Assembly: GCA_037308085.1 (NCBI GenBank) | Contig: CP147779.1 | Location: 1,056,001 to 1,120,000 of the forward strand | Length of the DNA: 64,000 nt | Origin: Promethearchaeati archaeon SRVP18_Atabeyarchaeia-1 | GTDB taxonomy: Archaea; Asgardarchaeota; Atabeyarchaeia; Atabeyarchaeales; Atabeyarchaeaceae | Reading direction: 5' to 3' | Shown: piece after piece, positions 5,804-38,680 of the stretch | How the letters are laid out: every line of letters begins with the position of its first letter | Position numbering within the stretch: position 1 is the first letter of the stretch | Position numbers and translations under genes: made by a program | The notes under the pieces: model-generated | Told to the model about the DNA's origin: nothing | Seen by the model: only the letters and a program-made list of their open reading frames with translations | The model's database searches: none

Positions 5804-6047
5804 TGGAGTCTTGGAGAGGTAGGCGGAAGCGGATAGGTCTTTCGGTTATTCGGGTCGGGGTCTTTTGACAAACTGGCGCGTGTTGTGGTTTTCTCTATAC
5901 TCAGCGTGCGTTGGCTTTTCAGGTATCGAGCCTAATATCAGCGCCTTTTAATAGCTAACTATATTTAGGTTCGATTAGTTCTCATCTACTTAAGCAGTTG
6001 AGCGATTCTCGATATGGAGTTGCCGACATACGTCGGAGTCAGCTGAT

Positions 6048-7634
6048 GTGATTGTAATAGGTAGCGGAATTGCAGGTCTCTACACTAGCATAGAAGCTAG
6101 TCGCCACTTGAAGGTTGCCATCGTTAACAAGAGTAGCCTGGAGGAGTGCAACACCAAGTATGCGCAAGGTGGGATAGCTGCAGCGATAGGCCCCTTTGAT
6201 TCCCCAAACCTGCATTTCAATGACACTATTAGAGCAGGGGCAGGACTTGTCGACCCTACTGCAGCGAGGATACTCGTGGAAGAGGCTCCTGACAGGATAA
6301 GTGACTTGATCAGCCTCGGCGTAACCTTTGACACAGTAGACGGCGAGATAACACTAGCAAGGGAAGGAGCCCACACCGTGCCAAGGGTTCTCCATTCCGG
6401 GGGCGACGCGACAGGTGCAAACATAGAGCAGACCCTTGGATCACTAGTAAGAAGAAACCAGAACATAAGCATCTTCGAAGACCACCTAGCTACGGAGATC
6501 CTAGTCAAAGGTGCGAAGGCTTATGGCATCAGAGCGCTGGACCGCAAAACATCCTTAACGAGAACCATCTTGGGAAAATACATAGTCCTGGCAACTGGAG
6601 GGGCTGGCATGCTCTTCAAACAAACGACAAACCCCCAAGTTGCAACTGGAGCAGGAGTGAGCATAGCCTACTTGGCTGGCGCCCTAGTATCAGACATGGA
6701 GTTCTTTCAGTTTCATCCAACTGCTCTCTGCAAGCCGGGAGCGCCGCGATTCCTGATCTCAGAGGCTGTAAGAGGTGAAGGCGGAATCCTCAGGAACTCC
6801 AAGGGAGAAGCATTTGCTCACAACTACCACCCGGACGGTGAGCTGGCTTCAAGAGACATTGTTTCCAGAGCGATCCTCGCAGAAATGAGCAAGACGAATT
6901 CTGATCATGTCTACTTGGACATTACGCACATGCCCAGCAAGATCATCGTAACGAGATTTCCGAGCATCTACAGGTTCTGCTTAACCCAAGGACTCGACAT
7001 CACGAAGGAGATGATCCCCGTTGCACCCGCAGCGCACTATATGATCGGTGGAGTCAAGACCAATGTCTGGGGCGAGACGAATATCAGGGGGCTCTACGCT
7101 TGTGGAGAAGCGGCTTGCACAGGCGTTCACGGCGCAAATCGGCTTGCAAGCAACTCCTTGATGGAGACACTTGTCTTCGGAAAGAGAATCGCAAAGCGGA
7201 TCCTATCGGAGGATCAGTGGATTGGGAGCGCCACAGAACCGAGCGACATGTCGACCTCCCTAGAGAACTACGCTGAACTATTCAGAGACGAACACCACCA
7301 CAGATCCGCTGGCGCCGACGATGTAGGTGAATTCTCGCTGGCAGACTTGCAGGAGCTAATGTGGAATAATGTCGGTATCATCCGGTCGGGCGAGAACCTG
7401 ACGGCAGCAGTTAGGCAACTTTCGAGATGGTTCAGAGAGGAGGCAGATGTAGACAGCAGCGATCCACAGAAAGCTGAGCTGGGGCTCATGATCACCTGCG
7501 CTCTTCTGATCTCGGCGACCGCCCTTATTCGCACTGAGAGTCGGGGGACTCATTACCGCGTAGATTACCCATCAGAATCGATTGTCTGGCGAAAACATGT
7601 ACTCTTCCAACGCATAAGGAACTGGGACCAGTAG
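6048..7634 (+). CDS. nadB: L-aspartate oxidase
   Basis: GSGIAG FAD motif, YAQGGIAA, EGAH, QFHPT, LISEAVRGEG, HYMIGG, GVHGANRLASNSL, ESRGTHYR; GGAG 9 nt before the GTG start. Confidence 0.95.
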   Translation: MIVIGSGIAGLYTSIEASRHLKVAIVNKSSLEECNTKYAQGGIAAAIGPFDSPNLHFNDTIRAGAGLVDPTAARILVEEAPDRISDLISLGVTFDTVDGEITLAREGAHTVPRVLHSGGDATGANIEQTLGSLVRRNQNISIFEDHLATEILVKGAKAYGIRALDRKTSLTRTILGKYIVLATGGAGMLFKQTTNPQVATGAGVSIAYLAGALVSDMEFFQFHPTALCKPGAPRFLISEAVRGEGGILRNSKGEAFAHNYHPDGELASRDIVSRAILAEMSKTNSDHVYLDITHMPSKIIVTRFPSIYRFCLTQGLDITKEMIPVAPAAHYMIGGVKTNVWGETNIRGLYACGEAACTGVHGANRLASNSLMETLVFGKRIAKRILSEDQWIGSATEPSDMSTSLENYAELFRDEHHHRSAGADDVGEFSLADLQELMWNNVGIIRSGENLTAAVRQLSRWFREEADVDSSDPQKAELGLMITCALLISATALIRTESRGTHYRVDYPSESIVWRKHVLFQRIRNWDQ

Positions 7635-7657: not shown

Positions 7658-8227
7658 GTGGCGAGCAAATTGCGCGAAAACCCCGAGATACGTCCAATGC
7701 GTTTGGAGTACGTTGAGGTCATAAAGATCATGGTGATAGGCGAAGGCGGCGTAGGAAAGACAACACTAATACATCGGTTCGTGACTGGCGAGTATTCAGA
7801 CCAATCCATGACAATCGGGCTTGGGTTCGCTTCCAAGACTATGAAAGCCAGGGATGGAAAAACGGTCAAGCTTCAGATATGGGACGTTGGCGGCCAGAGC
7901 CGCTTCAGGCTCCTCCTGCCTTCTGCGAAAGGTGGCGCGAAGGGAATAGTCCTGGTTTTTGATCTCTCTGTCCCCTCAACATTCATTAAGCTCGATGATT
8001 GGGTCAGGCTTGCCAGATCAGGATTTCCACCGGACAAATCCATCCCAATTGTGCTCGTGGGTGCAAAGTGCGATCTTGCAAGGCAAGTGATGGCCGATGA
8101 GGCAAGAAGGTTCGTTGCGAGAATGAAGTTAGATGGATACGTGGAAACAAGCTCGAAAGCTAGAATCATGATTGAGGAGCCATTTGCGAGACTTCTCCGG
8201 CTGATCACTCTAAGAAAGAATTGTTGA
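7658..8227 (+). CDS. Rab/Ras-like small GTPase
   Basis: G1 GEGGVGKT, G2 TIG, G3 WDVGGQ, G4 variant AKCD, G5 ETSSK; start may be ATG 7697. Confidence 0.93.
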   Translation: MASKLRENPEIRPMRLEYVEVIKIMVIGEGGVGKTTLIHRFVTGEYSDQSMTIGLGFASKTMKARDGKTVKLQIWDVGGQSRFRLLLPSAKGGAKGIVLVFDLSVPSTFIKLDDWVRLARSGFPPDKSIPIVLVGAKCDLARQVMADEARRFVARMKLDGYVETSSKARIMIEEPFARLLRLITLRKNC

Positions 8228-8241
8228 GCCACCCTTTCGCG

Positions 8242-9000
8242 TCAACCAGCTGACGCAAGCCTCATTCTTCTGATAGCACTCATGGTTAGGCGATGGTAGC
8301 GCCGCATAAACCTAGCTTTAACGTGTGCATCGTCTATTCCTCCTGTGCCTGCAAGGTCTCCTATGATGTCGCCCAGTGCATGGTAAAGTGAATCCTCTAC
8401 GGGCCCTGTGATGAATGCTGTCACGGCATTTCCCACTCTGAGCCTCAGATCGTCAGGTTTGAGGCCAAACTCGGGATCGAACCGTGCGTTAAGAGGACCC
8501 ATACTTGCCAAGTAGAGCTCTATACTTAGCCCCGTTCCTTCTCTCGCCGGGTGAATCTCCAGTCTGCCTCCCTCTTCGTCTTCTGTCCTAATGATCTCAG
8601 CCACGGTCACTTCTTTCCTCTGTTCTCCGGAATCAAGTACCTGTTCACTGACAGACTCCATCAATCCGCCACTTATGGTTCCATCTGGGCTACCAAGCAC
8701 CGTTGACGGGCTTAGCATGAGTGCGTAGGCAGCTCTGTGCTGGGGTCTCGCGAACTCCCACTTCTCTTCAATACCTTCGACCGAGGCGTCGTGTACACCG
8801 CACATCCTCAGAAGAGCGAGGGGATGTTCTGCTGTGAAGGCATAATTGGAGCCGTCGCGAAGCACAACATTACTGTCCCCCCTTACCACGTATCTTGGTT
8901 TGGCTGGGATGCCGTTCAGAGTAATTCCAGAGCCGGGCTTCGCAGGCGAAACCTTGATTACTGTTGTCTTGAGGTTCTTTTTGAGCGTGTGGAGATGTAT
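8242..9000 (-). CDS. LpxC-like zinc-dependent deacetylase (UDP-3-O-acyl-GlcNAc deacetylase fold)
   Basis: TAEH (LpxC TxEH), HALGDIIGDL (LpxC HKxLDxIGDL) and a downstream His in YHRL. The frame is open upstream of the listed GTG 8889 as IHLHTLKK...VSPAKPGSGI...IPA, matching the LpxC N-terminus. Start placed at ATA 9000 behind AGGTGA (inferred). Confidence 0.72.
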   Translation of the reverse strand: MHLHTLKKNLKTTVIKVSPAKPGSGITLNGIPAKPRYVVRGDSNVVLRDGSNYAFTAEHPLALLRMCGVHDASVEGIEEKWEFARPQHRAAYALMLSPSTVLGSPDGTISGGLMESVSEQVLDSGEQRKEVTVAEIIRTEDEEGGRLEIHPAREGTGLSIELYLASMGPLNARFDPEFGLKPDDLRLRVGNAVTAFITGPVEDSLYHALGDIIGDLAGTGGIDDAHVKARFMRRYHRLTMSAIRRMRLASAG

Positions 9001-9006
9001 TTTGCC

Positions 9007-10236
9007 TCACCTGCTCAGCTCTTGCATTTGATCTTCCTTCATATCCGCTGCCTCATAGGGGATCTTAGCGAGTACTTCTGCAGCCTCGATAATCTCAGCG
9101 ACGATGTCCTTCTCGTTTGGTGGACGAATTGTCGTCCAGTCCCCGGGACCAAAGACAACGACATCGGTTGCGAAGCCGCTCTCCTTTAGATCCCTAGCAG
9201 AAACCGGGAAAGGCAGCCACTCGAAGATCGGTTCGAATCCACTTACTTTCAGGAAAGCCTCGGAGATTGCATTGACTACGAAGGATCGGGCATCTTCTCG
9301 AAATGGTTGCTCCACAAATTCATCCTCCACTGATAGTTGGCAGCCACTGTTCTTGCCAACGCGTTCCGCAACATGTCGGAATTCGCCCATGAGCTCCTTG
9401 TGCGAGCACTCGGGAGGCAAAGTAACATAGCTGTAAGATGCTATGGAGCTAACCCCCTCATCAACGCCTGACAAATCTGATGCAACCCGCGTGGTTGCAA
9501 TAGACGGGTAACCGATCAGGAAATTCGCGATGGTTGCAGATGGCGCCTTCCCGTACTCGACCGGGTATAAGTGATGTCTAGGTTTCATGAATTCATCTAC
9601 GCTTTTTCCGAATCTGGTCAACGCCTCCCAAGGACTGTCTCCAAGCCACGCAAAGGCGGGACTGTGTAGCCGTCCTCTTATTGCCAACTTGAAGACCAGA
9701 CAACCCTTCTGAACATTGCATACTCTGAGGCCAGTCGACTCGATCACGACAACGTGGTTTCTGGACTCGGGAGACATGTTCGCGCACATTGTGTTTTCCC
9801 TGAGCAAGCGGACATTGAAGTAGCTATCTGTAGAACGCCTTCCCTCACTTCCCAGAAGGACGAGTGAAACATCAATGGGAGGATCTCTGTCAGCTTCAGT
9901 CGATATTGCCCTCATGGCAAGAACTGCGGACACTATCTTTCCGGCCACTAGCTGCAGGCAATTCTTATCCCCAGATACTGCATGTTTGCACCTTGCATCG
10001 GGATAATCTCCCCAAGCGTTGACGAGGTATGTTATGGAGCGGGAGTGATCGTGACCCACTCTAGTGAAATATACGACGTTGTCACCACTTCTCGTTGGGT
10101 TCCTCCTGAGGAGACTCAAGCCTGATAGGTAATCATCAACGAGATACGTGGCTGAGCCATTCTCCAGGGATTGAAAGACCTGGCAGAACAATGCATAGGC
10201 TTCACTCTCGAGCAAGTGCTGAGCTCCGCCTCCCAT
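9007..10236 (-). CDS. M20 (ArgE/DapE) family homolog, predicted catalytically degenerate
   Basis: Retains M20 layout (VIESTG...QKG...I.GRLHSP, VVFGPG...PNE) but lacks HxD, the GRGxxDxKG Asp, EE and the C-terminal His. Confidence 0.7.
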   Translation of the reverse strand: MGGGAQHLLESEAYALFCQVFQSLENGSATYLVDDYLSGLSLLRRNPTRSGDNVVYFTRVGHDHSRSITYLVNAWGDYPDARCKHAVSGDKNCLQLVAGKIVSAVLAMRAISTEADRDPPIDVSLVLLGSEGRRSTDSYFNVRLLRENTMCANMSPESRNHVVVIESTGLRVCNVQKGCLVFKLAIRGRLHSPAFAWLGDSPWEALTRFGKSVDEFMKPRHHLYPVEYGKAPSATIANFLIGYPSIATTRVASDLSGVDEGVSSIASYSYVTLPPECSHKELMGEFRHVAERVGKNSGCQLSVEDEFVEQPFREDARSFVVNAISEAFLKVSGFEPIFEWLPFPVSARDLKESGFATDVVVFGPGDWTTIRPPNEKDIVAEIIEAAEVLAKIPYEAADMKEDQMQELSR

Positions 10237-10990: not shown

Positions 10991-13402
10991 TCATCTAGAT
11001 GAGGTTTTGGAGTTTTTCAGCATGTTCTTGAGTCTTTCTTGTTTTCTCTTCTGTGGGAAGCCAATTTCGCTGTAGAAGGTTTTAATTGCTTCTTTCGCGC
11101 CTATTTGCAGAGCCCACAAGACACCGTAGCCCCCTTCCCTTTTGTAAATCTCCTTTGGGCGCTCATTGAAGCCAATCCCAAAATCGCCTGTCAGGATTCT
11201 TGCCTCCGACTCCAGGATTTGTGGGCGTATCGAGTCTAGTGTCTCTTGGATGTCTTGAGGTAGATCTTTGAACATGTAGTACTTGACGCCTTTCTTATGC
11301 AGGTCGGCTTTGCGCGTCTTTCTCTTCCATTGTTCGCTCATGATATCAAGGCGGTTCCTCTGCTCGACCGATAGATTATGAGTTCCATCTATGGCTCTCT
11401 CCAATGTTATTATTCCGCAATGTGTCGAAGGTGATCCTTCGTCACCGAAGGCTTGTACCAGCCACTCTCGTTTCATTTCAGGTGACCCTTGTCGTATAAA
11501 CGCCGGTATGTCCGGGTTTTGCAGAATGATTCTGCCAGTTACTGCCCCTGATCTCTGTAGTGTGTGACCAACGATGTCTGTTGTTGCGCGCAGTCTTGGG
11601 ATCCTACCGTCGTCGAATATTCTGTCGGTAATGTTTGGGTCGCCGAATATGTTTCTTAGTGATTCCGCGATCCTTCTTCTTTGTTCGTCGTCTTTGTTTG
11701 TGTATTCGAATCTCGGTCCTGCGCGTTTAGGTGTGTGAATTGATCCGTCTGAGTATCTTGCTGCCATGATTCTTGCTCCGTGTGGGGTTCTTAGGTTGAA
11801 GGGGAGTTTTGGGTTTTTGATTGCTCTGGCGTTTCCTATTGCTGCGGTGTGGTGGTTTGGCTCGTCGAGGTCTCTGCCGAGGTATCTAAGGATTGGGATA
11901 AGTTTGTTGGCCACCATGCCGTCCATTCGTTCGCTCAGTTGGTCGTTTAGGTATTTGATTGCGATCTGTGTTTCTCTTTTCCTGAGTTCGTTTCGGAGTT
12001 GTGTTTTTCCTCCTGCTTTGTTTATTGCTGCGTGTAGTAGTTCATGTTTGTACTCTTTGTCGAGGTAGATGGCGATTGTTTGTGGCAGTGCGTACCATGG
12101 TGTTTCGTAGGGTGGGATTGTCTTGTTTTCTGTTGGTATGTGGAGGGTTTCTTCCCCTTGCCTTGTTTTGTATCTGTAGAGGTGTAGGTTTCCTACCTTT
12201 TCTGCTTCGATGGTTGTGATCTTGTATTCTTGGTTTTGGTATTCTATTGTGATTGCTTTGCCCTCGAGTTTGAAGGTTGTTTTTTCGCGTGGTTTTGGTG
12301 GGGGGTGTGTTTTTTCGGTGAATGGTCTGGGGGAGAGGGCTATGCCATCTGTTCTCACGGTTAGAGTTTGGGCTTCTCCTCTTCTTGCCGTTGTTAGCAG
12401 CTTCTCGGTGGCGTCTTCGCTGAGTCTTATCGCTTTGTTTTCGATTTGCCCCGTAGCGAGTATTTTCCCTTGTTGTGTTTGGATGGCGATACTTGCGTAG
12501 TCTCCGTCTCTGACTTTGAGGCCGAGTTCTTCGAGTTTCTCGGTGAGCTGTATTCTTGTTTCTCCGCTAGTTGTGGTTGGTGTGACTTGGATGCCATGTG
12601 TCCAGGGGGGCTCTCCGGGTCCTCTCACGTTTAGGACATGGACATTTACTTTGTCTCCTGTCTTGATGCCTAGGTTTTCGATGTCTGCTTTCTTGATGTT
12701 TGCTCTTGTTCCCTTCACCACTGTTAGCACGGCGATGGCTTGGACGCCGTCCTTCTCGAGCAGCGCCGTTATTATGTCTCTTCGGTGGAACTCGACGTTT
12801 GTCATGGGGTCAAGCTTTAGGTAGAATGTCTGCTGGGCTTGACTGTAGTCTACTCTTGCGCAGGGGTTTCGTGTACTCTCAATAAACGCGTCGATGCTAT
12901 AGGCTGCTCCTTTCCACTTTATGGCTATGTCTTGGCTTTCGGGTGATTGGAGGCTCCTCAATGCTTGCTCCAGGTCTTTCCCGGCCATGCGTGATAGTTG
13001 CTGTAGATCCTTTAGGGCGATGTGTTCTCTGTTGCTCTCCCAGTAGAACACTTGACTCTCACTGTATCCTAGCTCATGAGCAAGCCTGTGCCTGCTGAGG
13101 CCTAGCTCTGTGCGCCACACTCTAACTAATTCACCTGCACCAAGCACCCACGCATCGTGAACCCTTGTCTTGCTCAGCTCGGTTGTATTGGTTGCTTGTT
13201 CTGCTGCCGCCCTGTCGGTGTTGCTAAGGTGCTCTGTATTGGTCCTTGCAGAAGCGTCACCGTCGCCTCTTGTCTTGGTGCTTTCCGTTGTCTCCCCCTG
13301 CCCATGCGTGTCCACGTCATTGGGTTGTTGTTGTGGCTGCTGCTCTGATGCTTGTGATGGTTCTCGCCCGCATTCCGCTATTTTCGTGCCCTCGTTCTCC
13401 AT
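10991..13402 (-). mobile_element. Free-standing LAGLIDADG homing-endonuclease-like protein with XRE HTH and AbrB-like domains
   Basis: Two LAGLIDADG-type helices (RIMAARYSDGS; EWLVQAFGDEGS) and an FYSEIGF..KRKQ tail typical of intein-type endonucleases; N-terminal XRE HTH (GLSRHRLAHELGYSESQVFYWE); LGIKTGDKV AbrB-like motif; no intein splicing termini; atypical A/C-rich coding strand. Confidence 0.72.
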
Positions 13403-13744
13403 AACAGACTACTATGTTTGATGGTATTTTAACTCGCCATAGGGCTCCTCTTCTCCCTCAATGCATAGGCACATAGAATTCCGCGTTTCGCCGCATTTCC
13501 CCGTGACTGTCACGAACCCAGTCGAGTGTTGTCTTCCTTTTGATGTCTTGTTGGCCACCAGGAATCTTGGTCTCATCTTGCAGGGACTGCTCGCAGGCTG
13601 GGTCTGACTTCTCGTGGCTTTGCCCGAAAAGCGTGTTCAAGCATCGGCTGTGATTCGGATTGCTGCTGGCAAGGTTTTTTATCCTGTTTAAATACAGTCA
13701 CTAGTTTGCATCAACCCATCATTTTTCGGTGAGCGAGTGGACAA

Positions 13745-16700
13745 ATGGCAATAAGATTCGTCGGGGGTTCTCCTCCAAGCGATGAGGAGACTTTTGGGAA
13801 GCTGCGCCCGTACGTGGCTGGGTGGTTCAAGGAGAAGTTTGGGGAGATGACTCCCCCGCAGAAGTACGCTATTCCTCTGATCCAGAGGAACGAGAATACG
13901 CTGGTGTTTTCCAGCACGGGGTCTGGCAAGACCTTGGCCGCCTTCCTGTCCATGATAGACAAGCTGTTCTCGATGGGTGAGAGCGGTGAGTTAGAGGAAA
14001 CTGTTTATGTCCTCTATGTTAGTCCCCTCAGGGCGCTTAACAATGATATCAAGCGGAACTTGATGGTTCCACTTGAAGGTATAAGGGAGACTTCGCGCAG
14101 GGCAAATGTGGAGTTGCCCATGATAAATGTGGCTGTGAGGACTGGGGATACGCCGCAGGCTGAGCGGAGCAGAATGCTTCGCCACCCGCCTCATATACTG
14201 ATAACGACTCCTGAGACGCTCTCTATAGTCCTTAACTCGCCCAAGTTCAGCGAGCGCCTAAAGACGATTAAGTGGGTGATTGTCGACGAGATCCACGAGT
14301 TGTGTGACTCCAAGAGAGGAGTTCACTTGTCTCTTAGCCTTGAGCGGCTCCAACACCTTATTGGCGGTGACAAGGAGTTTGTCCGAGTCGGTTGCAGTGC
14401 GACTCAGGCCCCGGTGGATGAGATAGCCAAATTCCTCGTGGGGTACCGGGATGATGGTTCTTTTAGAGACTGTAACATAGTTGATGTCTACTCTACGAAG
14501 TCGCTTGACATTGGCGTTATCACGCCAGTCTCAAATCTCGCGTATGCAAGCTACGACTCTGCAACAGACAACATGTATGAGCTTCTGAAAAAGCAGATTG
14601 ACTCGCACACTACGACACTCGTTTTTACGAATACTCGTAGCGGAACGGAGCGTATCGCCTTCAGGCTCAAGGAGTTGTATGGCGATGAATCCGTGGATCA
14701 GCTGGCAGCCCACCATGGCAGTCTGAGCCGTGATACGAGGCTCGATGTGGAAGAGCGCCTGAAGAAGGGGCAGCTGAAAGCGGCTGTCAGCTCAACTTCC
14801 CTTGAACTCGGTATAGACATCGGGTACATAGACTTGGTCTGCCAGATTGGTAGTCCCAAAAGCGTCGCTAAGGGCTTACAGAGAATCGGGAGGGCAGGGC
14901 ATGCGCTTCATGAGACTTCCATCGGTCGCCTGCTCGTTTTCGACCTTGATGACCTTGTCGAATGCACAGTATTGGTTAAGTCTGCCTACGAAGGGAAGAT
15001 CGACAGGGTTGCGATACCGAGAAACTGCTTGGATGTATTGGCCCAGCACTTGGTGGGTATGAGCATCGAATCGAAGTGGACTCCAGATGATGCATTGAGA
15101 CTGATTAGGCGTTCCTATTGTTATCATGAATTGCCTAAAGAGGATTTCATGGGTGTAATCAGGTATCTGGCAGGGGAGCATGTTAACCTCGAAGAACGCG
15201 GGGTGTACAGGAAGTTATGGTTTGACGAGGATCAGCAGGTTTTTGGTAGGAAGAGAGGCGCACGGATGATATACTTCCTGAACATTGGGACTATCCCCGA
15301 AGAATCGAATTACAGGGTTCTCCTTGAGGAGTACAGGAATCCGTTGGGGCAACTGTCGGAGAGCTTCGTTGAGCGGCTTCAGCCGGGCGACATTTTCGTG
15401 CTAGGTGGCAGAGCGTATGAATTCAGAAGAACAAGTGGCATGAAAGTCTATGTGAGGCCCGCCTTTGGTCGGCGCCCGACGGTTCCATCATGGACTGGGG
15501 AAATGCTTCCAAGGAGTTTCGACTTGTCATGCGAGATCGGCAAGTTCCGGCAGGTAATAGCTGGTAGGATTAAGAAGGAAGGTTTGGATGCTACGAAGAA
15601 GTGGCTTCTCGAAGAATACCGGGTTGACGAGAGATCTGCAGACAGCATGATCGTGTACTTCAGGAACCAGCTTGCGATCACGGGAACAGTGCCAACAGAC
15701 AAGAGGATCATGATTGAAGGGTACATCGACAAGAGAGGGAGACTCAACATAATCTTCCACAGCGTCTATGGTCGTCGGGTGAATGACGCACTGAGCAGGG
15801 CATACGCCTATGCCATAACTAGGGTCTCAAAGGTGAATGTGGGCACAGCGATTCTGGACGATGGATTCGTCATCACTCTTCCAGCAGGAAGAATGATCGA
15901 CTTGAACAGGGTTCCGCTACTCGTAAACCCTGAGAATGTCGAAGACTTCATCCGCAAGGCAATTAGAAAGACGGAGCTTTTCAAACAGAGATTCAGACAC
16001 TGCGCAGTAAGAAGCTTCATGGTTCTAAGGATGTACAAAGGGTGGGAGATATCTGTAAGCAGACAGCAGACCAGGGCGATAAAGGTCCTTGACCTGCTTG
16101 AGGGAATGGAGGACTTCCCCGTCGTAAAAGAGACTTACCGAGAGATACTTGAAGACGACATGGATCTTCCAAACGCAAAGAACGTTATCAACGGGCTAAA
16201 GAGCGGAGATATCGAGTCTAGGGTTCTTCCGCTCACTGACGTGCCTTCCCCATTCTCACACGGTCTTATCCTCGTTGGGGCTGAAGACGTGGTGTTAATG
16301 GAGGATCGCGAAGCATTATTGAGAGAGTTGCATCGGCAAGTCCTTTCAAGGGTAATAGGCGAAGCTGGGGAAGTGCTCTTCTCGGAGGAGACCGTTCAGG
16401 CTTTGTATAACCAGAGGCAGCACTTAACTCCTGAAACACAAGGGAAAGAAAAGGAAGACATAGTACGAATTCTGCATGATATAGGACCGGCGGAGATATT
16501 CCGAGACACATATCCCACGATCTTGAACAGAATGGCAGTTGATCCTGAGACCGTTAGCCAATGGGCTGAGGAGCTCGTAATGGAGGGTCGAGTAATTATC
16601 ATTAGAACTCCAAAAGGGGAGAGCTTCGGAGTTACGACAGACGACTTCGTAACCTACTATCATGTTTTCAGGAGTGCGCCAGGCGAGCTCGATGAGCTTG

Positions 16701-19700
16701 AGAAAAACATGCTGAAGGCGTTGGAAGTCAAACCTCTCAAAGCCAGCGAACTAATGGTATCGCTGAATTCCGGTTACCCCCATGTTAGGAGAGCATTGCG
16801 AAGACTGGAAAGGGCCATGCTCGTAGTGAGATCAAAGTATTCGCCGAAGGGATCCGCAAGGGAGCAAGCTCTTGAGACAACGTGGAGTCTCACGTCGAGG
16901 CATCTCCCGAGCCAGGTTTTTGCCAGTGTGGAACATGCCGATCCTGAGGAGGAGAAAGAGAAGGCCGTAAAGCATTTCCTTAGGTCCTTTGGTCCATGTG
17001 TCGCGTCGGAAGTGGCCACTCACCTCAACATGTCAGAAGAAGAAGCAGAAAAGATCTTCAACCGCCTAGAGAGGATGGGCGATGTACTGAGTGGATATTT
17101 CATACCCTCAAAGCCGCCTCGCCAGTACCTCCTTGCCGAAGACAGGGAACTACTAAAGCAGATAGAGAAGAGTCGAGAACCCATTCGTTTCCCAGAGGCA
17201 GTGGTGACCCAGCTAGTCTTGGAGAAGCAACATCTAACTCCCACCACGAGAGGCAAGGGAGAAGAAGACATAGTCACAATGATCGCCGAGCTGGGACCAA
17301 TACAGTCGCACAGAGCTTTGTACCACAGGATCGAGAAATTCGATCTAGATACACTGAGAAGGCTTTGGGCTTCCGAGAAGAAGCTAATGTTGGGCAGATT
17401 CACGGAGAGAGGTCTATCATATATCCGTACAAGTGACTTGCCGATCTACGTAGCGCTGAGAGAAGCTAACGGAGTATTGCTCTCAGACCTTGACAGACTT
17501 GTATTGGGCATCATAGAAAAGGAGAATCCTATAACCAAAGGCAGAATAACGGCATTGACCGGGCTTGAAAAACCCACGGTCGAGGAGAGTCTGGAAAGGC
17601 TTGAAGAATCTCTGCTGGTTTTGAGGACCGTCCCTTACGACATGGAGCCCGAGGCCCAGCAAGTAATCCTGTACGAGCCTGCGGGTAACTATACTTCGCA
17701 GTTTCAGAAACTCTCAAGAAGTGAGGCGCTTAGGACTCTTATCCAGCGCACCATTGAAGGACATGGGATGATCACAATACAGGGCATAATATCATTAACT
17801 AATCTTCCATACGACGAAGTCGAAAGCACCCTGTCGGCACTCAGGAGAGAGAGACTGATTGTCTCAGGGCAATTCATTGAAGGCATACCAATAGAAACCT
17901 ACCTCGTCGCGAAGGATCTCCAAAGGTTGAAGGAACTCGGCAGCGAGTTTGCTGTCGGCGGGACGAAGGAGGGTGAGATCCCATTTGAGGGCAGGATCAT
18001 GGTGGATGTCCTCGGCAATTTGGACCCCTATACTTGGAGGGTTGCCCAGCAACTGTCAGACCTCTATGGAAGTGCTTTTCTTAATCCGATAGTGGTTGAC
18101 GGCGTGCTTGTAGGGGCAGCCGACCTTCATGTTACCCAGGACCTATTGCACGTAGCTGACCTAAAGGTGTCTGAACTTCTGCTCGAAAAACCTGAGCTGT
18201 TGGAAAAAATCGCGAAACGATTCATCGAAATCGCTTCATATTACGGGCTTATGGCTGCGGAGGTCGAATTTGTCTGGGGGCAGCCGGCCGTTACAGAGAA
18301 AAACGAGAAACTGGTCAAGGTTTTCACCGAACTCGGCTATGAGATCGTTGGCGACAGGCTCTGTTGGGGAGAAACGCCTTCAGAACTATTCGACGAGCAG
18401 GTTGTCAGGGTATTTCAGTTTAAGAAGCAACACGTGGATCCAGAAACCCGGGGTAGAACAAGAGACGATGTCTATCGGATAATGCGGGACATCGGTCCCA
18501 TATGGACCCCCTGGGAGGAGAAGCTTAGCATTAGAGTGGAGGATTTGAGAAGAGAATGGGTTGAAGAATTGTTGAAGAAGGATAGGGTACTAGTCGAAGA
18601 TACTCTGCTTGGGTCAAAACCGATGCTTCTTCCGGTGAAAGACTGGCCGACTTACTGGTGGGCGTGCAAGACACCTGTGAAGCTTAGCTTAGATGCGGTG
18701 AAACTACTGAAAGTAATAAGAGAGAATGGTCCGATTTCGAAAAAGTCGCTCATTAGGAAGTCGCTGATGCACCAGTTAGACGTAGAACACCTTCTGTCGA
18801 TTCTGTGCCAAATGAGACTGATCACGAACATAGGAAACTCGACAACTGCGGGAATATGGGTCACTATTGACCAATGGCTTCCGGCAACGGTGAAGCTGGA
18901 GGACTATGTTGAGCCACATGAGGCGAGAAGGAGGATCATCCTCAGGCTTCTTAGAAGCTTGGGTCCATTAACGGTATCGCAGTTACGTGAGCTTACGGCG
19001 CTTCACTCAAGGCAGGTAAGACTAGTTCTCTCGGAACTCAGAGATCAAGGAATCGTGGGACTTGGTAGGTTCCTGAGATCTCCCAGGACGCAGATACAGT
19101 TTGTCGCTCTTGAGGACTTGGAGGAACTGCATTCCATCTCATCAATGGTGAAGGACGGAGACTATGGGAGAACGACCCGTGCTTTTACGGTACCGCCGGG
19201 CGATCCACTCTACTACGCCCTGAAGGACGAAATCAAAAGCACCTTCAGAACGGGATGGTGCTATACAGTGGTTCTAAATGACGATCTGGTCGCCGCCTTC
19301 AAATCAAAGGGAGCAAAGAAGAAACACTTCATAATAACTGATCTATTAATTCAAGGCAAGCAGGTCGAGAGGAAAGAAGTCATCCTAAAGATCATCGGCC
19401 AAATAGATGAAACTGCTAGATGCGTCGGATCCCTTGACATCGAAGTCAAGAGTATCAACGAGAAACCCGTGACCTATGAAGGCAACCAAAGTATTGTGGA
19501 GATCTTCAAGTCTGCGGGCTACAAGGCTGGCGGACTAGTTCTCTACAAACCTTTCTCAGTATCTATTCAGCCAAGCGGCAAGGAGGTTTTCGCCGAGGAT
19601 GTTTGCGTAGAGTTCTTGATGCGTAGGCAACATCTCTCTCCGCAGTACAAGGGTAGAGGAAAGGATGAAATACTCAAGGTTCTGCACGACATAGGACGTG

Positions 19701-20782
19701 TGGAATGGTCTGACTCGATTGCAGTCCGCATAGAGGAATTCAACCCCAACGATCTCGATGAACTGAAGTGGAAAGATCAAAAGATTGTTCACGGCAGATT
19801 TCTGAATGAGAACCTGACGCAAGTCCCAACCGACGAGCTACTCGAATACTACTATGCTTCGAGGTCCCCCTCATTCGTTCTAGGATACGACGATCAACGG
19901 ATTCTTGAACTGCTAACCAAGTCTGGGCCTCTAGAAGAAAAGGAGATAACGGCAAGAACTGGTCTAGATCCGGAGACTGTACGTGGATCCCTGGAAAACG
20001 TGGAGAAAGCCGCTAGAATAGTTAGAGTCAGAAAAGGTGACTCGCACTATACAACTGATAGCTGGTTCTACGATGTCATCGACCACTACCTGCCAAGCGG
20101 TTCATCACAATTCGAGAGCACGAGTCCGAAGGACGCGAGAAAGAAGATCATACTGAAGTTTCTTGCAGCAAACGGCCCTGTGAGCTTAAGGCAAATCGAG
20201 GAATGGTCACACATGGAGTTAGCTGAGATCAAATCAGTTCTATCAGAGCTTGAGGCAGAAGGAAGAATCTCCTCAAACGTCTATGTCGAAGGGGTCGCAG
20301 GCAGAAGATATGTTAGAAAGGAGGACCTGCCAGAACTGAGATCACTAGAAGAGCTGTACCTCAGCCAGAAGCTCACCAACGGGGCGCCCTACTATGTCAC
20401 ACTTCCGAACTACGACCCATTAATCAAAACATGGAAAGACGAGCTGCTCAGAGTTTTCTCAATTGGTCTAATAGAACTTGGAGCAGACTACTATATGTTG
20501 ACACTTAGATCAGGAAAACCGGTGGCTGCTATACAAGTCCACTTTGAGGTAAACACCATGAGGATACACGACATGGAGCTGCTCGACTCGCTTGACCTCA
20601 GAATTGTGCAAGACGTGATCAAGGACATAGAGAAAACCGCGCATGACTCAAGAAAAATGGAGTTGCAGATCGAGCGCATAAGCGGTAGAGGAGCCCAGGA
20701 TAAGCTGAATAGGCAGAGAGTCGAGACATTTCTTGAGAATGGTTATCGACTTAATGAAGGAATCCTGCGTAAGAAACTATAA
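13745..20782 (+). CDS. lhr: Lhr-family ATP-dependent helicase with four C-terminal winged-helix AlkZ/HTH_42-like modules (2345 aa)
   Basis: TGSGKT, YVSPLRALNND, TTPE, DEIH, SAT, HHGSL, LELGID, QRIGRAGH; repeated [RK]QH[LV]xP motif at aa 891, 1161, 1561 and 1961. Confidence 0.93.
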   Translation: MAIRFVGGSPPSDEETFGKLRPYVAGWFKEKFGEMTPPQKYAIPLIQRNENTLVFSSTGSGKTLAAFLSMIDKLFSMGESGELEETVYVLYVSPLRALNNDIKRNLMVPLEGIRETSRRANVELPMINVAVRTGDTPQAERSRMLRHPPHILITTPETLSIVLNSPKFSERLKTIKWVIVDEIHELCDSKRGVHLSLSLERLQHLIGGDKEFVRVGCSATQAPVDEIAKFLVGYRDDGSFRDCNIVDVYSTKSLDIGVITPVSNLAYASYDSATDNMYELLKKQIDSHTTTLVFTNTRSGTERIAFRLKELYGDESVDQLAAHHGSLSRDTRLDVEERLKKGQLKAAVSSTSLELGIDIGYIDLVCQIGSPKSVAKGLQRIGRAGHALHETSIGRLLVFDLDDLVECTVLVKSAYEGKIDRVAIPRNCLDVLAQHLVGMSIESKWTPDDALRLIRRSYCYHELPKEDFMGVIRYLAGEHVNLEERGVYRKLWFDEDQQVFGRKRGARMIYFLNIGTIPEESNYRVLLEEYRNPLGQLSESFVERLQPGDIFVLGGRAYEFRRTSGMKVYVRPAFGRRPTVPSWTGEMLPRSFDLSCEIGKFRQVIAGRIKKEGLDATKKWLLEEYRVDERSADSMIVYFRNQLAITGTVPTDKRIMIEGYIDKRGRLNIIFHSVYGRRVNDALSRAYAYAITRVSKVNVGTAILDDGFVITLPAGRMIDLNRVPLLVNPENVEDFIRKAIRKTELFKQRFRHCAVRSFMVLRMYKGWEISVSRQQTRAIKVLDLLEGMEDFPVVKETYREILEDDMDLPNAKNVINGLKSGDIESRVLPLTDVPSPFSHGLILVGAEDVVLMEDREALLRELHRQVLSRVIGEAGEVLFSEETVQALYNQRQHLTPETQGKEKEDIVRILHDIGPAEIFRDTYPTILNRMAVDPETVSQWAEELVMEGRVIIIRTPKGESFGVTTDDFVTYYHVFRSAPGELDELEKNMLKALEVKPLKASELMVSLNSGYPHVRRALRRLERAMLVVRSKYSPKGSAREQALETTWSLTSRHLPSQVFASVEHADPEEEKEKAVKHFLRSFGPCVASEVATHLNMSEEEAEKIFNRLERMGDVLSGYFIPSKPPRQYLLAEDRELLKQIEKSREPIRFPEAVVTQLVLEKQHLTPTTRGKGEEDIVTMIAELGPIQSHRALYHRIEKFDLDTLRRLWASEKKLMLGRFTERGLSYIRTSDLPIYVALREANGVLLSDLDRLVLGIIEKENPITKGRITALTGLEKPTVEESLERLEESLLVLRTVPYDMEPEAQQVILYEPAGNYTSQFQKLSRSEALRTLIQRTIEGHGMITIQGIISLTNLPYDEVESTLSALRRERLIVSGQFIEGIPIETYLVAKDLQRLKELGSEFAVGGTKEGEIPFEGRIMVDVLGNLDPYTWRVAQQLSDLYGSAFLNPIVVDGVLVGAADLHVTQDLLHVADLKVSELLLEKPELLEKIAKRFIEIASYYGLMAAEVEFVWGQPAVTEKNEKLVKVFTELGYEIVGDRLCWGETPSELFDEQVVRVFQFKKQHVDPETRGRTRDDVYRIMRDIGPIWTPWEEKLSIRVEDLRREWVEELLKKDRVLVEDTLLGSKPMLLPVKDWPTYWWACKTPVKLSLDAVKLLKVIRENGPISKKSLIRKSLMHQLDVEHLLSILCQMRLITNIGNSTTAGIWVTIDQWLPATVKLEDYVEPHEARRRIILRLLRSLGPLTVSQLRELTALHSRQVRLVLSELRDQGIVGLGRFLRSPRTQIQFVALEDLEELHSISSMVKDGDYGRTTRAFTVPPGDPLYYALKDEIKSTFRTGWCYTVVLNDDLVAAFKSKGAKKKHFIITDLLIQGKQVERKEVILKIIGQIDETARCVGSLDIEVKSINEKPVTYEGNQSIVEIFKSAGYKAGGLVLYKPFSVSIQPSGKEVFAEDVCVEFLMRRQHLSPQYKGRGKDEILKVLHDIGRVEWSDSIAVRIEEFNPNDLDELKWKDQKIVHGRFLNENLTQVPTDELLEYYYASRSPSFVLGYDDQRILELLTKSGPLEEKEITARTGLDPETVRGSLENVEKAARIVRVRKGDSHYTTDSWFYDVIDHYLPSGSSQFESTSPKDARKKIILKFLAANGPVSLRQIEEWSHMELAEIKSVLSELEAEGRISSNVYVEGVAGRRYVRKEDLPELRSLEELYLSQKLTNGAPYYVTLPNYDPLIKTWKDELLRVFSIGLIELGADYYMLTLRSGKPVAAIQVHFEVNTMRIHDMELLDSLDLRIVQDVIKDIEKTAHDSRKMELQIERISGRGAQDKLNRQRVETFLENGYRLNEGILRKKL

Positions 20783-36927: not shown

Positions 36928-37465
36928 AGAAGAAATACCCATTGCTTCGGGTTCTCCACAAGGAAGGTCTCACTGTTGGCGACGCTATCACTTCTTTGGT
37001 GCTATTGCCTTTGTGGTTGTTGGTCGAACCTGCTACCTTCAGATTGGCGGGGAAGGCTGCGAAGAACGGTTGATAACAGATAGGTCGTCCTTTAGTCCTT
37101 CCCATATACAGCACCATTCAAGACAAGGTTGTCCATCTAGGGTCGTCGAAAATCGGTCGGTAATCAATCTATGTGATTCTATCCAATTGTCATTTCATCA
37201 GGTTCGTGTTGCTAAACACTCTCATCAGAAGATGAACATATGAAGAAGGGGTATGGGGGGACAGAATGATCGTCGATACTCTTAGCACATGATTCAATGG
37301 AATTTGATTACTGCTCGTAAGACATGAGCGCTTGGCAGTTCCAGTGCCTGTATAATTGAATAATGTGGAGTTTTATTAGCAGACGATGGAGGAAATACCA
37401 TAGGATTTATCTCTTTGAAGGCAGTAAGAAAAGGAGAGAGGAAAGCCTTGGGGTGAGTCGACGGA

Positions 37466-38680
37466 ATGTCAGACACAGATTATGAATTGGAGTTATTGTC
37501 AAAACTTGTAGCTTTGGACACTGATTCGGATGAGAAAAGGAATTATGAGGAATGTTGTAGAGTCATATCCGGCGAAGCCAGTCGCATCGGACTGGACGCC
37601 CGAATACTCGATGGCAAAGTGGTTCTGAAGGGCGATGAGAGGCCAAGGCCAAATGTCGTCGTGGATCTGAATAAGAACTCGGACACGACGCTCGTGCTTG
37701 TGACCCACTACGACATAGTTCCTCCCGGAGGAGAATGGACTCATGAACCGTTCAAGGTTACCGTAGAAGGCGATAAGGCATACGGAAGGGGCACATCAGA
37801 TGACAAGGGTGCAATAGTCGCGTGCTTCGGGGCGCTTGCTAGGCTCAAAGAAGATGCTTCTGCTGACATCAACGTGAAGCTATTAGTGACTTGCGATGAA
37901 GAAGGCGGTGGAGAGGCCGGCATAGAGTACCTCATGGATAATGTCAAGATCAAGGGAGATGCAGCTCTAGTAATAGACAGTGGGCCTGAATTCGTGAGTT
38001 GTGGAGCCAGTGGGGTCATCTGGGGGAAAGTGAAGGTAAGAGGAAAACAAGGGCACGCTGGATATCCGCATAAAGCAGTAAATGCAATTGATGAAGCAAT
38101 CAAGATCATATCTTCGCTTCAAGAATACAGGAAGAAGCTGAGTTCAAGAAAGTCGAAACTTGCTCCACCACCGGGTAGCCCTGAGAAGAGAATTTGGAGA
38201 CGGTTGTCGGTAACCATGATGCATGCTGGTGAGAAGGAGAACATAATCCCCGGGGAATGCGAAATTCGATTTGATCTGCGTGCATTACCAGATGAGGACA
38301 TAGATGAGCTGAAGAGCGCTACGCGAGACTTCGTGACCAACGAAGCAAGGAGGAAAGGCGTGGACGCGAGCCTCGAGATCATACATGTTCTACCTGGTTA
38401 CTACACTGATCCCGGACACCCTCTGGTAAGGTCGCTGGGAGAGGCAGCCAAGAAAGTCTCGGGTGTGGAGCTGCCTGTATGCGCAGACTTGGGTGGGAAC
38501 GATGGAAGCTTCGTCGCAAAGGTTCAGATTCCAGTTGCATGCTTTGGGCCCCTTAGAGAAGGGACAAACTATCATGGCATTGACGAATTCGTCCATCTCA
38601 AAGATATAACATTTGTTCGCGATGTAATCATTAACATGTGTCAAGATGGCAGAAAGAAACTGAAGCAGCAAGTGGAATAG
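37466..38680 (+). CDS. M20 family metallohydrolase (ArgE/DapE-like), intact active site
   Basis: THYDIVP, YGRGTSDDKG, DEE, GKQGHA, HGIDE. Confidence 0.93.
   Translation: MSDTDYELELLSKLVALDTDSDEKRNYEECCRVISGEASRIGLDARILDGKVVLKGDERPRPNVVVDLNKNSDTTLVLVTHYDIVPPGGEWTHEPFKVTVEGDKAYGRGTSDDKGAIVACFGALARLKEDASADINVKLLVTCDEEGGGEAGIEYLMDNVKIKGDAALVIDSGPEFVSCGASGVIWGKVKVRGKQGHAGYPHKAVNAIDEAIKIISSLQEYRKKLSSRKSKLAPPPGSPEKRIWRRLSVTMMHAGEKENIIPGECEIRFDLRALPDEDIDELKSATRDFVTNEARRKGVDASLEIIHVLPGYYTDPGHPLVRSLGEAAKKVSGVELPVCADLGGNDGSFVAKVQIPVACFGPLREGTNYHGIDEFVHLKDITFVRDVIINMCQDGRKKLKQQVE

Follow-up and report, generated by a model that had tools for sequence, protein, structure and literature searches.

An LpxC-fold amidohydrolase paired with a degenerate M20-fold protein in Asgard archaea, with a candidate role in pantothenate and coenzyme A precursor metabolism

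LpxC (PF03331; PDB 1p42 and 4mdt) is familiar almost exclusively as the enzyme of the committed step towards lipid A and as a target for antibiotics. Here we describe a gene for a protein of the same fold in the archaeon Promethearchaeati archaeon SRVP18_Atabeyarchaeia-1, found in a stretch of 64,000 nucleotides (contig CP147779.1, positions 1,056,001–1,120,000), which is the window in all that follows. The protein, a putative zinc amidohydrolase called the amidase below, shares with LpxC the two-domain fold and the positions of the E-H, H..D..D and H motifs. It differs from LpxC in being shorter (252 aa), with about 29 residues fewer between the oxyanion Thr and the zinc helix and about 22 extra at a predicted partner interface. 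It also lacks the Lys beside the zinc His, scores below the Pfam cut-off, comes from a genome in which no lipid A pathway was found, and is predicted to need a partner of the M20 fold.

That partner is encoded by the adjoining gene. It shares the two-domain fold and the EPT and GPG sequence landmarks with the M20 family of ArgE, DapE and the carnosinases, but unlike these di-metal amidohydrolases it has no conserved metal set (19 sequences) and is tied to an LpxC-fold gene. We know of no solved complex between an LpxC and an M20 protein and of no M20-type partner for LpxC.

Two further enzymes are relevant by their reactions. Pantothenase (EC 3.5.1.22), an activity known since the 1960s, splits pantothenate into pantoate and beta-alanine, the same reaction that we propose for the pair. 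The Pseudomonas enzyme has been described as acting via an acyl-enzyme and not via zinc, so it may be unrelated to the amidase family, whose members adjoin PanF, pantoate kinase and candidate enzymes of pantoate and beta-alanine catabolism. In the Pseudomonas pathway of that decade, pantoate, aldopantoate and dimethylmalate dehydrogenases lead to 2-oxoisovalerate and beta-alanine is removed by transamination; this classical degradation route reportedly comes from the Snell laboratory in 1966. The vanin-type pantetheinase of the nitrilase superfamily would catalyse a rival reaction, the release of pantothenate from pantetheine for coenzyme A (CoA) salvage. It is a eukaryotic enzyme of unrelated fold with a Cys-Glu-Lys mechanism, and none of the searches made showed a sequence or fold relation between it and the pair. 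A 2023 paper gives the protein identity of pantothenase as still unknown. Our literature search found no paper that assigns genes to pantothenase or to the enzymes of pantoate degradation, and the search on LpxC-like proteins found nothing related.

The two genes and the signal between them are as follows.

8242–9000, minus strand: LpxC-fold amidohydrolase gene, 252 aa, with a near-cognate ATA start at 9000–8998 and the stop at 8244–8242.
9005–9012, minus strand: AGGTGAGG, a Shine-Dalgarno-like element that spans the TGA stop of the partner gene and lies 4–5 nt upstream of the ATA start.
9007–10236, minus strand: partner gene P, 409 aa, M20 fold, with its stop 6 nt before the amidase start.

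The minus-strand frame 8242–9006 holds 254 open codons directly after the TGA stop of the upstream gene (9009–9007), and the residue numbers used here are those of its 254-residue translation. An open reading frame (ORF) caller restricted to ATG, GTG and TTG starts only at a GTG at 8889 and returns 215 aa. The 22 close homologues (239–272 aa, mostly about 252; 64–79% identical) instead begin with M-HLHT at the position of the ATA. In the DNA alignment of three related genomes, the start codon is ATA in the window (8998–9000), ATG in the same genus and ATT in a complete genome of the same family (loci L024 and L016), and the AGGTGAG 5–6 nt ahead of it, which includes the stop of the upstream gene, is kept in all three. 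No other letter stands at the ATA position in contigs from four sequencing runs, two of which are other samples of the same study. Since the homologue starts, the three-genome alignment and the contigs of the four runs agree, the gene is on these comparisons intact, with 252 codons and a near-cognate start. The hidden N-terminus and the length of about 252 aa proposed in the first-pass annotation, which had been made from the letters alone, are thus both real.

The Shine-Dalgarno-like element overlaps the partner's stop, which suggests translational coupling; the amidase is probably translated in concert with the upstream partner gene. Standard gene callers shorten the amidase gene, and the 215-aa form (P0020) as well as other short forms are found in databases.

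The catalytic positions lie in four places, all on the minus strand.

8824–8829: codons of E60-H61 (TAEH), matching the general-base Glu and the first zinc His of LpxC; invariant in 34/34.
8419–8421: codon of T196, in a family motif A-R/V-T-P/A that resembles the A-R-T-F oxyanion Thr motif of LpxC.
8356–8382: codons of H209-A-L-G-D213-I-I-G-D217, aligned to the H-K-x-x-D-x-x-G-D zinc helix of LpxC with Ala for Lys (H209 at 8382–8380, D213 at 8370–8368, D217 at 8358–8356).
8293–8298: codons of Y237-H238 (YHRL), with H238 (8295–8293) aligned to the second catalytic His of LpxC.

Across 34 family members, with identities down to 22%, the invariant columns are E60, H61, G105, H209, D213, D217 and H238. 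Y237 is kept in at least 90% of them, and T196 is invariant among the close homologues and Thr or Ser across the family. The family profile reaches the LpxC of Aquifex aeolicus (E 1.8e-11), placing vEH on TVEH, HalGDviGD on HKVFDLIGD and YHalT on GGHSLN. We take the matching positions to be E78/H79, H238/D242/D246 and H265 in the numbering of E. coli LpxC. The match of TAEH, HALGDIIGDL and YHRL to the LpxC catalytic set, first noticed from the letters alone, is therefore upheld by a profile alignment in which six of its residues never vary.

The structural comparison with LpxC gives the same answer. The AlphaFold model of the amidase, built from 16 homologues (pLDDT 88, pTM 0.89), has only LpxC at the top of a Foldseek search (E 3e-12, about 1e-12; probability 1.00). 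By VIA-align its 43 top entries are all LpxC (Z 21–23, rmsd 2.3–2.9 Å, 212–219 of 254 residues, 20–21% identity), the best at Z 23.0 and 2.3 Å over 212 residues, after which the score drops to Z 7.6 for the fold of ribosomal protein S5. A weak Pfam match to Ribosomal_S5_C (17.6 bits) reflects this shared S5-domain-2-like fold, and a ribosomal role was rejected.

At the level of single sequences the relation is much fainter. PF03331 gives the window protein 18.2 bits (E 0.0019) over residues 14–77 only, below the gathering cut-off of 27 bits, which is reached by 5 of the 33 family representatives. One of those five, P0070, is a bona fide LpxC (263 aa, 182 bits) that came from the same search, and hhalign of the family against it aligned the first domain only. 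Searching solved structures with the single protein gave no match, LpxC being reached by the family profile alone, and NCBIfam found nothing on the amidase. As the two-domain fold and the E-H, H..D..D and H motifs occupy homologous positions, the chemistry is very probably the same zinc-dependent amide hydrolysis as in LpxC.

The departures from LpxC concern the substrate side. From T196 to H209 there are 12 residues against 41 in P0070, counted there from the Thr of ARTF to the His of HK..D..GD, hence about 29 fewer; this count was taken from motif landmarks and not from alignment because MAFFT misplaced the middle of P0070. The aligned blocks against the A. aeolicus and E. coli enzymes show the same deficit of about 29 residues. 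The region is presumably Insert II of LpxC, the hydrophobic passage for the acyl chain.

At the position after H209 the window protein has Ala, and the 34 sequences have A, T, S, V, C or W. Lys never occurs there, so the Ala read at the K239 position from the first was correct. In E. coli LpxC, K239 is the basic residue beside the zinc His and serves the UDP-sugar substrate.

What the family has gained lies elsewhere.

8689–8760, minus strand: family-specific insert, residues 83–106 (W-E-F-A-R-P-Q-H-R-A-A-Y-A-L...), not in LpxC, predicted surface of contact with the partner.

Compared with A. aeolicus LpxC it adds about 22 residues behind the first domain, with a motif W-D/E-F-x-R-P-x-H-R..G..DG in which R87, A93 and G105 are conserved in the 34-sequence alignment.

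No lipid A genes accompany the amidase. In the 2.81-Mb one-contig genome (96.9% complete), the LpxA C-terminal domain (PF13720), LpxB (PF02684), the LpxD N-terminal domain (PF04613) and LpxK (PF02606) gave no match at E<=1, while the same searches match control Gram-negative genomes. The absence of lpxA, lpxB and lpxD that had been noted for the window thus extends to the whole genome. Since the catalytic and zinc residues are strictly conserved and the lipid A pathway was not found, the evidence supports an LpxC-fold amidohydrolase that would act on something other than UDP-3-O-acyl-N-acetylglucosamine (UDP-3-O-acyl-GlcNAc).

The partner is an M20 protein in fold. Its model (pLDDT 79) has the two M20 domains, and Foldseek places carnosinase CN2 and DapE at the top (E 1e-19 to 1e-18), followed by LysK and others to 1e-15, at probability 1.00. 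In sequence it is far from the family: NCBIfam gives weak ArgE/DapE-type matches that are confined to the C-terminal 230 residues and fall well short of the cut-offs, and Pfam gives no M20 match above threshold for the window's partner and no match for partners in other lineages. The partners of the different lineages are homologous by hhalign, with a probability of 97% (E 1e-10) between the window's family (f1) and a second family of its phylum (f21), 98.5% (E 2e-15 over 269 columns) between a metagenomic group and f1, and 97.3% (E 2e-11) between the metagenomic group and a third family, f27.

Only M1, Y224, F239, G242, P275, W340 and G363 are invariant among 19 partner sequences. The M20 di-metal ligand set (His, Asp, Glu, Glu/Asp, His) is not conserved, and because no His, Asp or Glu is invariant in these sequences, the partner is probably a non-catalytic subunit and no metallo-enzyme itself.

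The two genes travel together. We examined 36 loci, namely the window, 11 other Asgard loci and 24 metagenome loci, and in 34 of them the two genes are no more than 0.7 kb apart. Of the remaining two, one is cut by a contig edge and the other belongs to genome G279, whose partner is elsewhere in the genome; a 397-aa ORF upstream of NadB at the latter locus (L017) was considered as its partner and rejected as no homologue. The order of the two genes varies, with the partner first or second, and they often overlap by a few bases. Among 400 genomes of the phylum, the partner profile matches 13, which are the same 12 that carry the amidase plus one weak match (3e-10).

The complex predicted for the two proteins has an ipSAE of 0.87 (0.86–0.88 in three runs that share at least 97% of their contacts), against 0.00 for the best of three controls. 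The mark used for this score is reached by 58 of 80 solved complexes and by 2 of 110 mismatched pairs, counts that hold only roughly because our own alignments fed the predictor. On the amidase the predicted interface comprises residues 83, 85–88, 91–92 and 94–97 of the insert, 198–201 just past T196, and 239 and 242 beside H238. The partner contributes H221, Y224-P225, F239, G242, P275 and 334–340. The interface is thus made of the most conserved family-specific residues on both proteins. The model supports binding between amidase and partner but does not show it.

The family is rare. An exhaustive HMMER scan of 1.84 billion cluster representatives gave 44 proteins at E<=1e-3, nearly all of 226–297 aa, and the names on the members include Njordarchaeota, Odinarchaeia, 'Promethearchaeota', a Euryarchaeota metagenome-assembled genome, Hydrothermarchaeota and one Desulfocucumaceae bacterium. 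In the phylum of the window the amidase occurs in 12/400 genomes and in four families only, with 3/3 in f1 (the window included), 4/4 in f21, 4/4 in f27 and 1/1 in f29. The ESM Atlas adds, as leads only, 250-aa clusters with partial LpxC labels in Methanobacteriota and Fibrobacterota. The amidase subfamilies are only 30–45% identical to one another. Taken with the models, this is a new and rare variant of the LpxC fold that is predicted to be partner-dependent.

The genes around the pair point to pantothenate and CoA. Neighbours were annotated with Pfam and NCBIfam and then tabulated with phmmer seeds taken from the annotated loci, and the 33 full-length amidases (the fragments L054, L055 and L059 excluded) fell into nine clusters at 55% identity. 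In seven of the nine, a gene specific to pantothenate or CoA lies within 6.5 kb, be it pantoate kinase, phosphopantothenate synthetase (PPS), CoaBC, CoaX, PanF, KPR or MfnA. For some seven such genes among a few thousand, the expectation by chance is a few percent per locus, a rough estimate made with no formal control.

In the f29 locus (L025), a pantoate kinase gene (NF041122, E 4e-44) shares 4 bp with the amidase gene. In the four f27 genomes (G300–G303, represented by L018), which have the tightest linkage to the kinase, a same-strand row holds the partner, an ECF S-component-like gene, the amidase, a small gene with an AsnC-type ligand domain, pantoate kinase (E 7e-52), a gamma-CA-like hexapeptide-repeat gene and CoaBC. 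In f21, the row of L020 holds KPR, an MfnA-type decarboxylase and pantoate kinase, followed beyond two unrelated genes by the amidase and partner genes, an Amidohydro_3 gene and PPS; PPS is 1.1–1.2 kb away in L021 and L023, and pantoate kinase and MfnA are 2–3 kb away in L017.

A metagenomic cluster (L036–L045) has a different setting, a row of OPT transporter, amidase and partner. It is flanked by a full ArgE/DapE-type M20 protein (E 1e-96 to 1e-121 to PRK13013), an SDR, an aldehyde:ferredoxin oxidoreductase and an enzyme like IPMDH or tartrate dehydrogenase. The sodium/pantothenate symporter PanF (TIGR02119, 538 and 564 bits at a cut-off of 328) is 1–2 kb away in L036 and L045, the latter having PPS too, and L042 has a class III aminotransferase and an MMSDH-like aldehyde dehydrogenase. 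In the bacterial locus L057 the row is M20, amidase, partner and, 0.8 kb away, the type III pantothenate kinase CoaX.

Small ORFs of 91–98 aa recur in these PanF/OPT clusters beside PanF or the IPMDH-like gene.

L036, 3404–3676: small ORF.
L042, 5585–5860: small ORF.
L043, 5835–6122: small ORF.
L045, 4791–5084: small ORF.

In another metagenomic locus, L058, the next genes after the amidase encode a HAD-type hydrolase and a NUDIX hydrolase (8690–10047). It is speculative that they are the phosphatase and diphosphatase steps that degrade CoA-type nucleotides ahead of the amidase.

The genome of the window holds its pantoate-using genes outside the window, 21–26 kb before the amidase.

G000:C1:1038136-1038978: pantoate kinase.
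G000:C1:1039241-1039774: PPS.
G000:C1:1042303-1043424: MfnA, the beta-alanine-forming decarboxylase.

CoaBC is also present. Neither panB (ketopantoate hydroxymethyltransferase) nor PanC was found in this genome; panB is present in 309/400 genomes of the phylum and in 0/3 of f1. Because pantoate kinase, PPS and MfnA are present and panB was not found, the organism appears, from its gene content, to have the machinery to use pantoate and beta-alanine and no recognised way to make pantoate.

From this setting we infer both the substrate and the direction of use. That the pair acts somewhere in pantothenate/CoA-precursor metabolism seems to us probable. That it is a two-subunit amidohydrolase cleaving pantothenate itself, or a close pantothenate conjugate, we place slightly below an even chance; such cleavage would make the pair a candidate for the orphan enzyme pantothenase.

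In the proposed mechanism, the amidase would be the catalytic subunit, with zinc held by His/His/Asp, Glu as the general base and His/Thr stabilising the oxyanion. The acyl-chain passage of LpxC would have been lost and the conserved insert gained, docking on the degenerate M20-fold partner next to the active site. The complex would split pantothenate (N-pantoyl-beta-alanine), or some very similar compound that contains pantothenate, at its amide bond. As the window's own genome holds pantoate kinase, PPS and the beta-alanine-forming decarboxylase and no panB was found, the released pantoate and beta-alanine may re-enter CoA synthesis by the archaeal kinase-then-ligase route. In the PanF-linked clusters, the pair would open a degradative pantothenate route, and we take the oxidoreductases and the aminotransferase of these loci to be the enzyme set of the classical one.

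The fullest form of the proposal is more tentative, and we regard it as a possibility with the balance against it. Here a heteromeric zinc amidase of a kind not known before would be the missing pantothenase, so that Asgard and other archaea import pantothenate, split it and rebuild it via pantoate kinase and PPS, while elsewhere the same step opens catabolism.

Several observations weigh against pantothenate cleavage. The three loci of the window's own family, f1, have no pantothenate/CoA gene within 8 kb, the nearest being those 21–26 kb off. The cluster L046–L056/L058 shows only an M20 peptidase, dipeptide (Dpp)-type ABC binding proteins and oxidoreductases. Metagenomic loci also hold the full ArgE/DapE-type M20 deacylase, which could itself be what cleaves pantothenate, the pair then having a related substrate. 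Nor are the nine clusters fully independent: three belong to a single Asgard family, and loci within a phylum may have inherited their gene order from a common ancestor.

The hardest case is f27. These genomes (1.3–1.4 Mb, 93–98% complete) keep the pantoate-kinase homologue and CoaBC beside the pair (L018, 5140–10642) and lack PPS (0/4), panB (0/4), PanC (0/2 tested) and a true MfnA (0/1 tested). Judged by these genes, pantoate released in f27 would have no known route to phosphopantothenate, so the family fits the release of intact pantothenate better than its cleavage. The 'pantoate kinase' of f27 may act on pantothenate; alternatively, specificity differs between the amidase subfamilies.

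Hence the main rival is that the complex resembles a pantetheinase or hydrolyses another conjugate, freeing intact pantothenate for phosphorylation by the neighbouring kinase, the pantoate-kinase homologue or CoaX. The f27 genomes, given what they lack, must start from ready-made pantothenate, L057 couples the pair to a type III pantothenate kinase, and a peptide-like precursor would go with the peptide transporters of the OPT and Dpp types that adjoin the pair. However, PanF, which imports free pantothenate, and candidate pantoate-oxidising enzymes adjoin the pair as well, so that pantothenate itself would be processed further there. Moreover, free pantothenate would be a dead end in genomes that have pantoate kinase and PPS and no PanK, unless the kinase accepts pantothenate. 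We think this reading unlikely, though one to keep in view.

A second is a general deacylase of N-acyl-amino acids or peptides that scavenges with M20 peptidases and peptide transporters, its CoA neighbourhood being inherited or coincidental. The M20 ArgE/DapE deacylase, the OPT transporter and the Dpp/Opp binding proteins are indeed the commonest neighbours in the 24 metagenomic loci, and two of the nine clusters have no pantothenate-specific gene. Yet seven pantothenate/CoA gene families recur in f21, f27, f29, an unrelated archaeal cluster and a bacterium, and at least five independent coincidences are, on the rough estimate above, not to be expected. This makes the general deacylase distinctly unlikely.

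Still less probable is an amidohydrolase that supplies beta-alanine to PPS from N-carbamoyl-beta-alanine, N-acetyl-beta-alanine or beta-alanyl peptides. It would account for PPS at 1.1–2.8 kb in L020, L021 and L023, for the Amidohydro_3 protein between the pair and PPS in L020, and for the carnosinases (beta-alanyl-dipeptidases) among the closest solved folds of the partner. But PPS, and with it any known use of beta-alanine, is missing from the most tightly linked genomes, MfnA often already adjoins the pair, and the adjacency of PanF and pantoate kinase is left unexplained.

Very little credence is left for a role in deacetylating N-acetylated sugar nucleotides or glycolipids within an undescribed archaeal glycoconjugate pathway, a reading that has the LpxC fold, the full catalytic set and the missing lipid A genes (hence a substrate other than that of LpxC) in its favour, but has against it the loss of the acyl-chain insert and of the Lys, an obligatory partner that is peptidase-like, and annotated neighbours among which no glycosyltransferase, nucleotide-sugar or lipid genes were seen in the 36 loci. 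This was the suggestion of the first-pass annotation. Its zinc amidohydrolase of the LpxC fold, working outside lipid A synthesis, is supported; the substrates it named, nucleotide sugars, acyl-UDP-GlcNAc and GlcNAc-inositol lipids, are not supported. The undescribed archaeal pathway it foresaw may exist, but for the salvage of vitamin B5 and CoA and not for glycoconjugate synthesis.

Two roles as a replacement were considered and rejected. The pair does not take the place of panB in archaea without it, since f21 has both panB and the pair (4/4), at least nine panB-less families have no pair, and PPS too is missing from the small genomes that carry the pair. Nor does it substitute for PPS, as neither protein has a nucleotide-binding or ligase domain.

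Around the pair in the window lie genes for a Ras-family GTPase, a flavoprotein resembling aspartate oxidase, and ribosomal protein S12. The small GTPase (PF00071, E 2e-37; 7658–8227, plus strand) is convergent to the amidase gene and has the same place in the two f1 relatives. The flavoprotein, of the aspartate-oxidase/succinate-dehydrogenase type, adjoins the amidase locus both in the window (6048–7634, plus strand) and in L017 of f21 (5988–7580, genome G279), the two being 42% identical; the shared position could be a remnant of synteny or point to aspartate metabolism. A full Peptidase_M20 with its dimerisation domain lies at 37457–38677 (plus strand), 28 kb from the pair, and its relationship to the M20 of the metagenomic clusters is remote (E 3e-29).

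Two other ORFs were noted in the window. An ORF of 2345 aa (13745–20782, plus strand) joins an Lhr-type helicase (DEAD, Helicase_C, DEAD_assoc, WH_Lhr) to several AlkZ-like DNA glycosylase and winged-helix domains and is, by its domain content, an unusually large repair fusion. An ORF of 803 aa (10991–13402, minus strand) has no Pfam match, is 69% identical in an f1 relative and coincides with a strong AT skew of -0.41 in the composition bin 12001–14000.

If the pair cleaves pantothenate, the orphan enzyme pantothenase would gain a candidate gene. It would also close a gap in archaeal CoA salvage, as archaea that phosphorylate pantoate ahead of ligation otherwise have no obvious use for external pantothenate, and it would explain the pantoate supply in genomes without ketopantoate hydroxymethyltransferase. 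The LpxC scaffold would then have been recruited to a small-molecule vitamin substrate, with its acyl tunnel lost and a pseudo-peptidase subunit apparently required.

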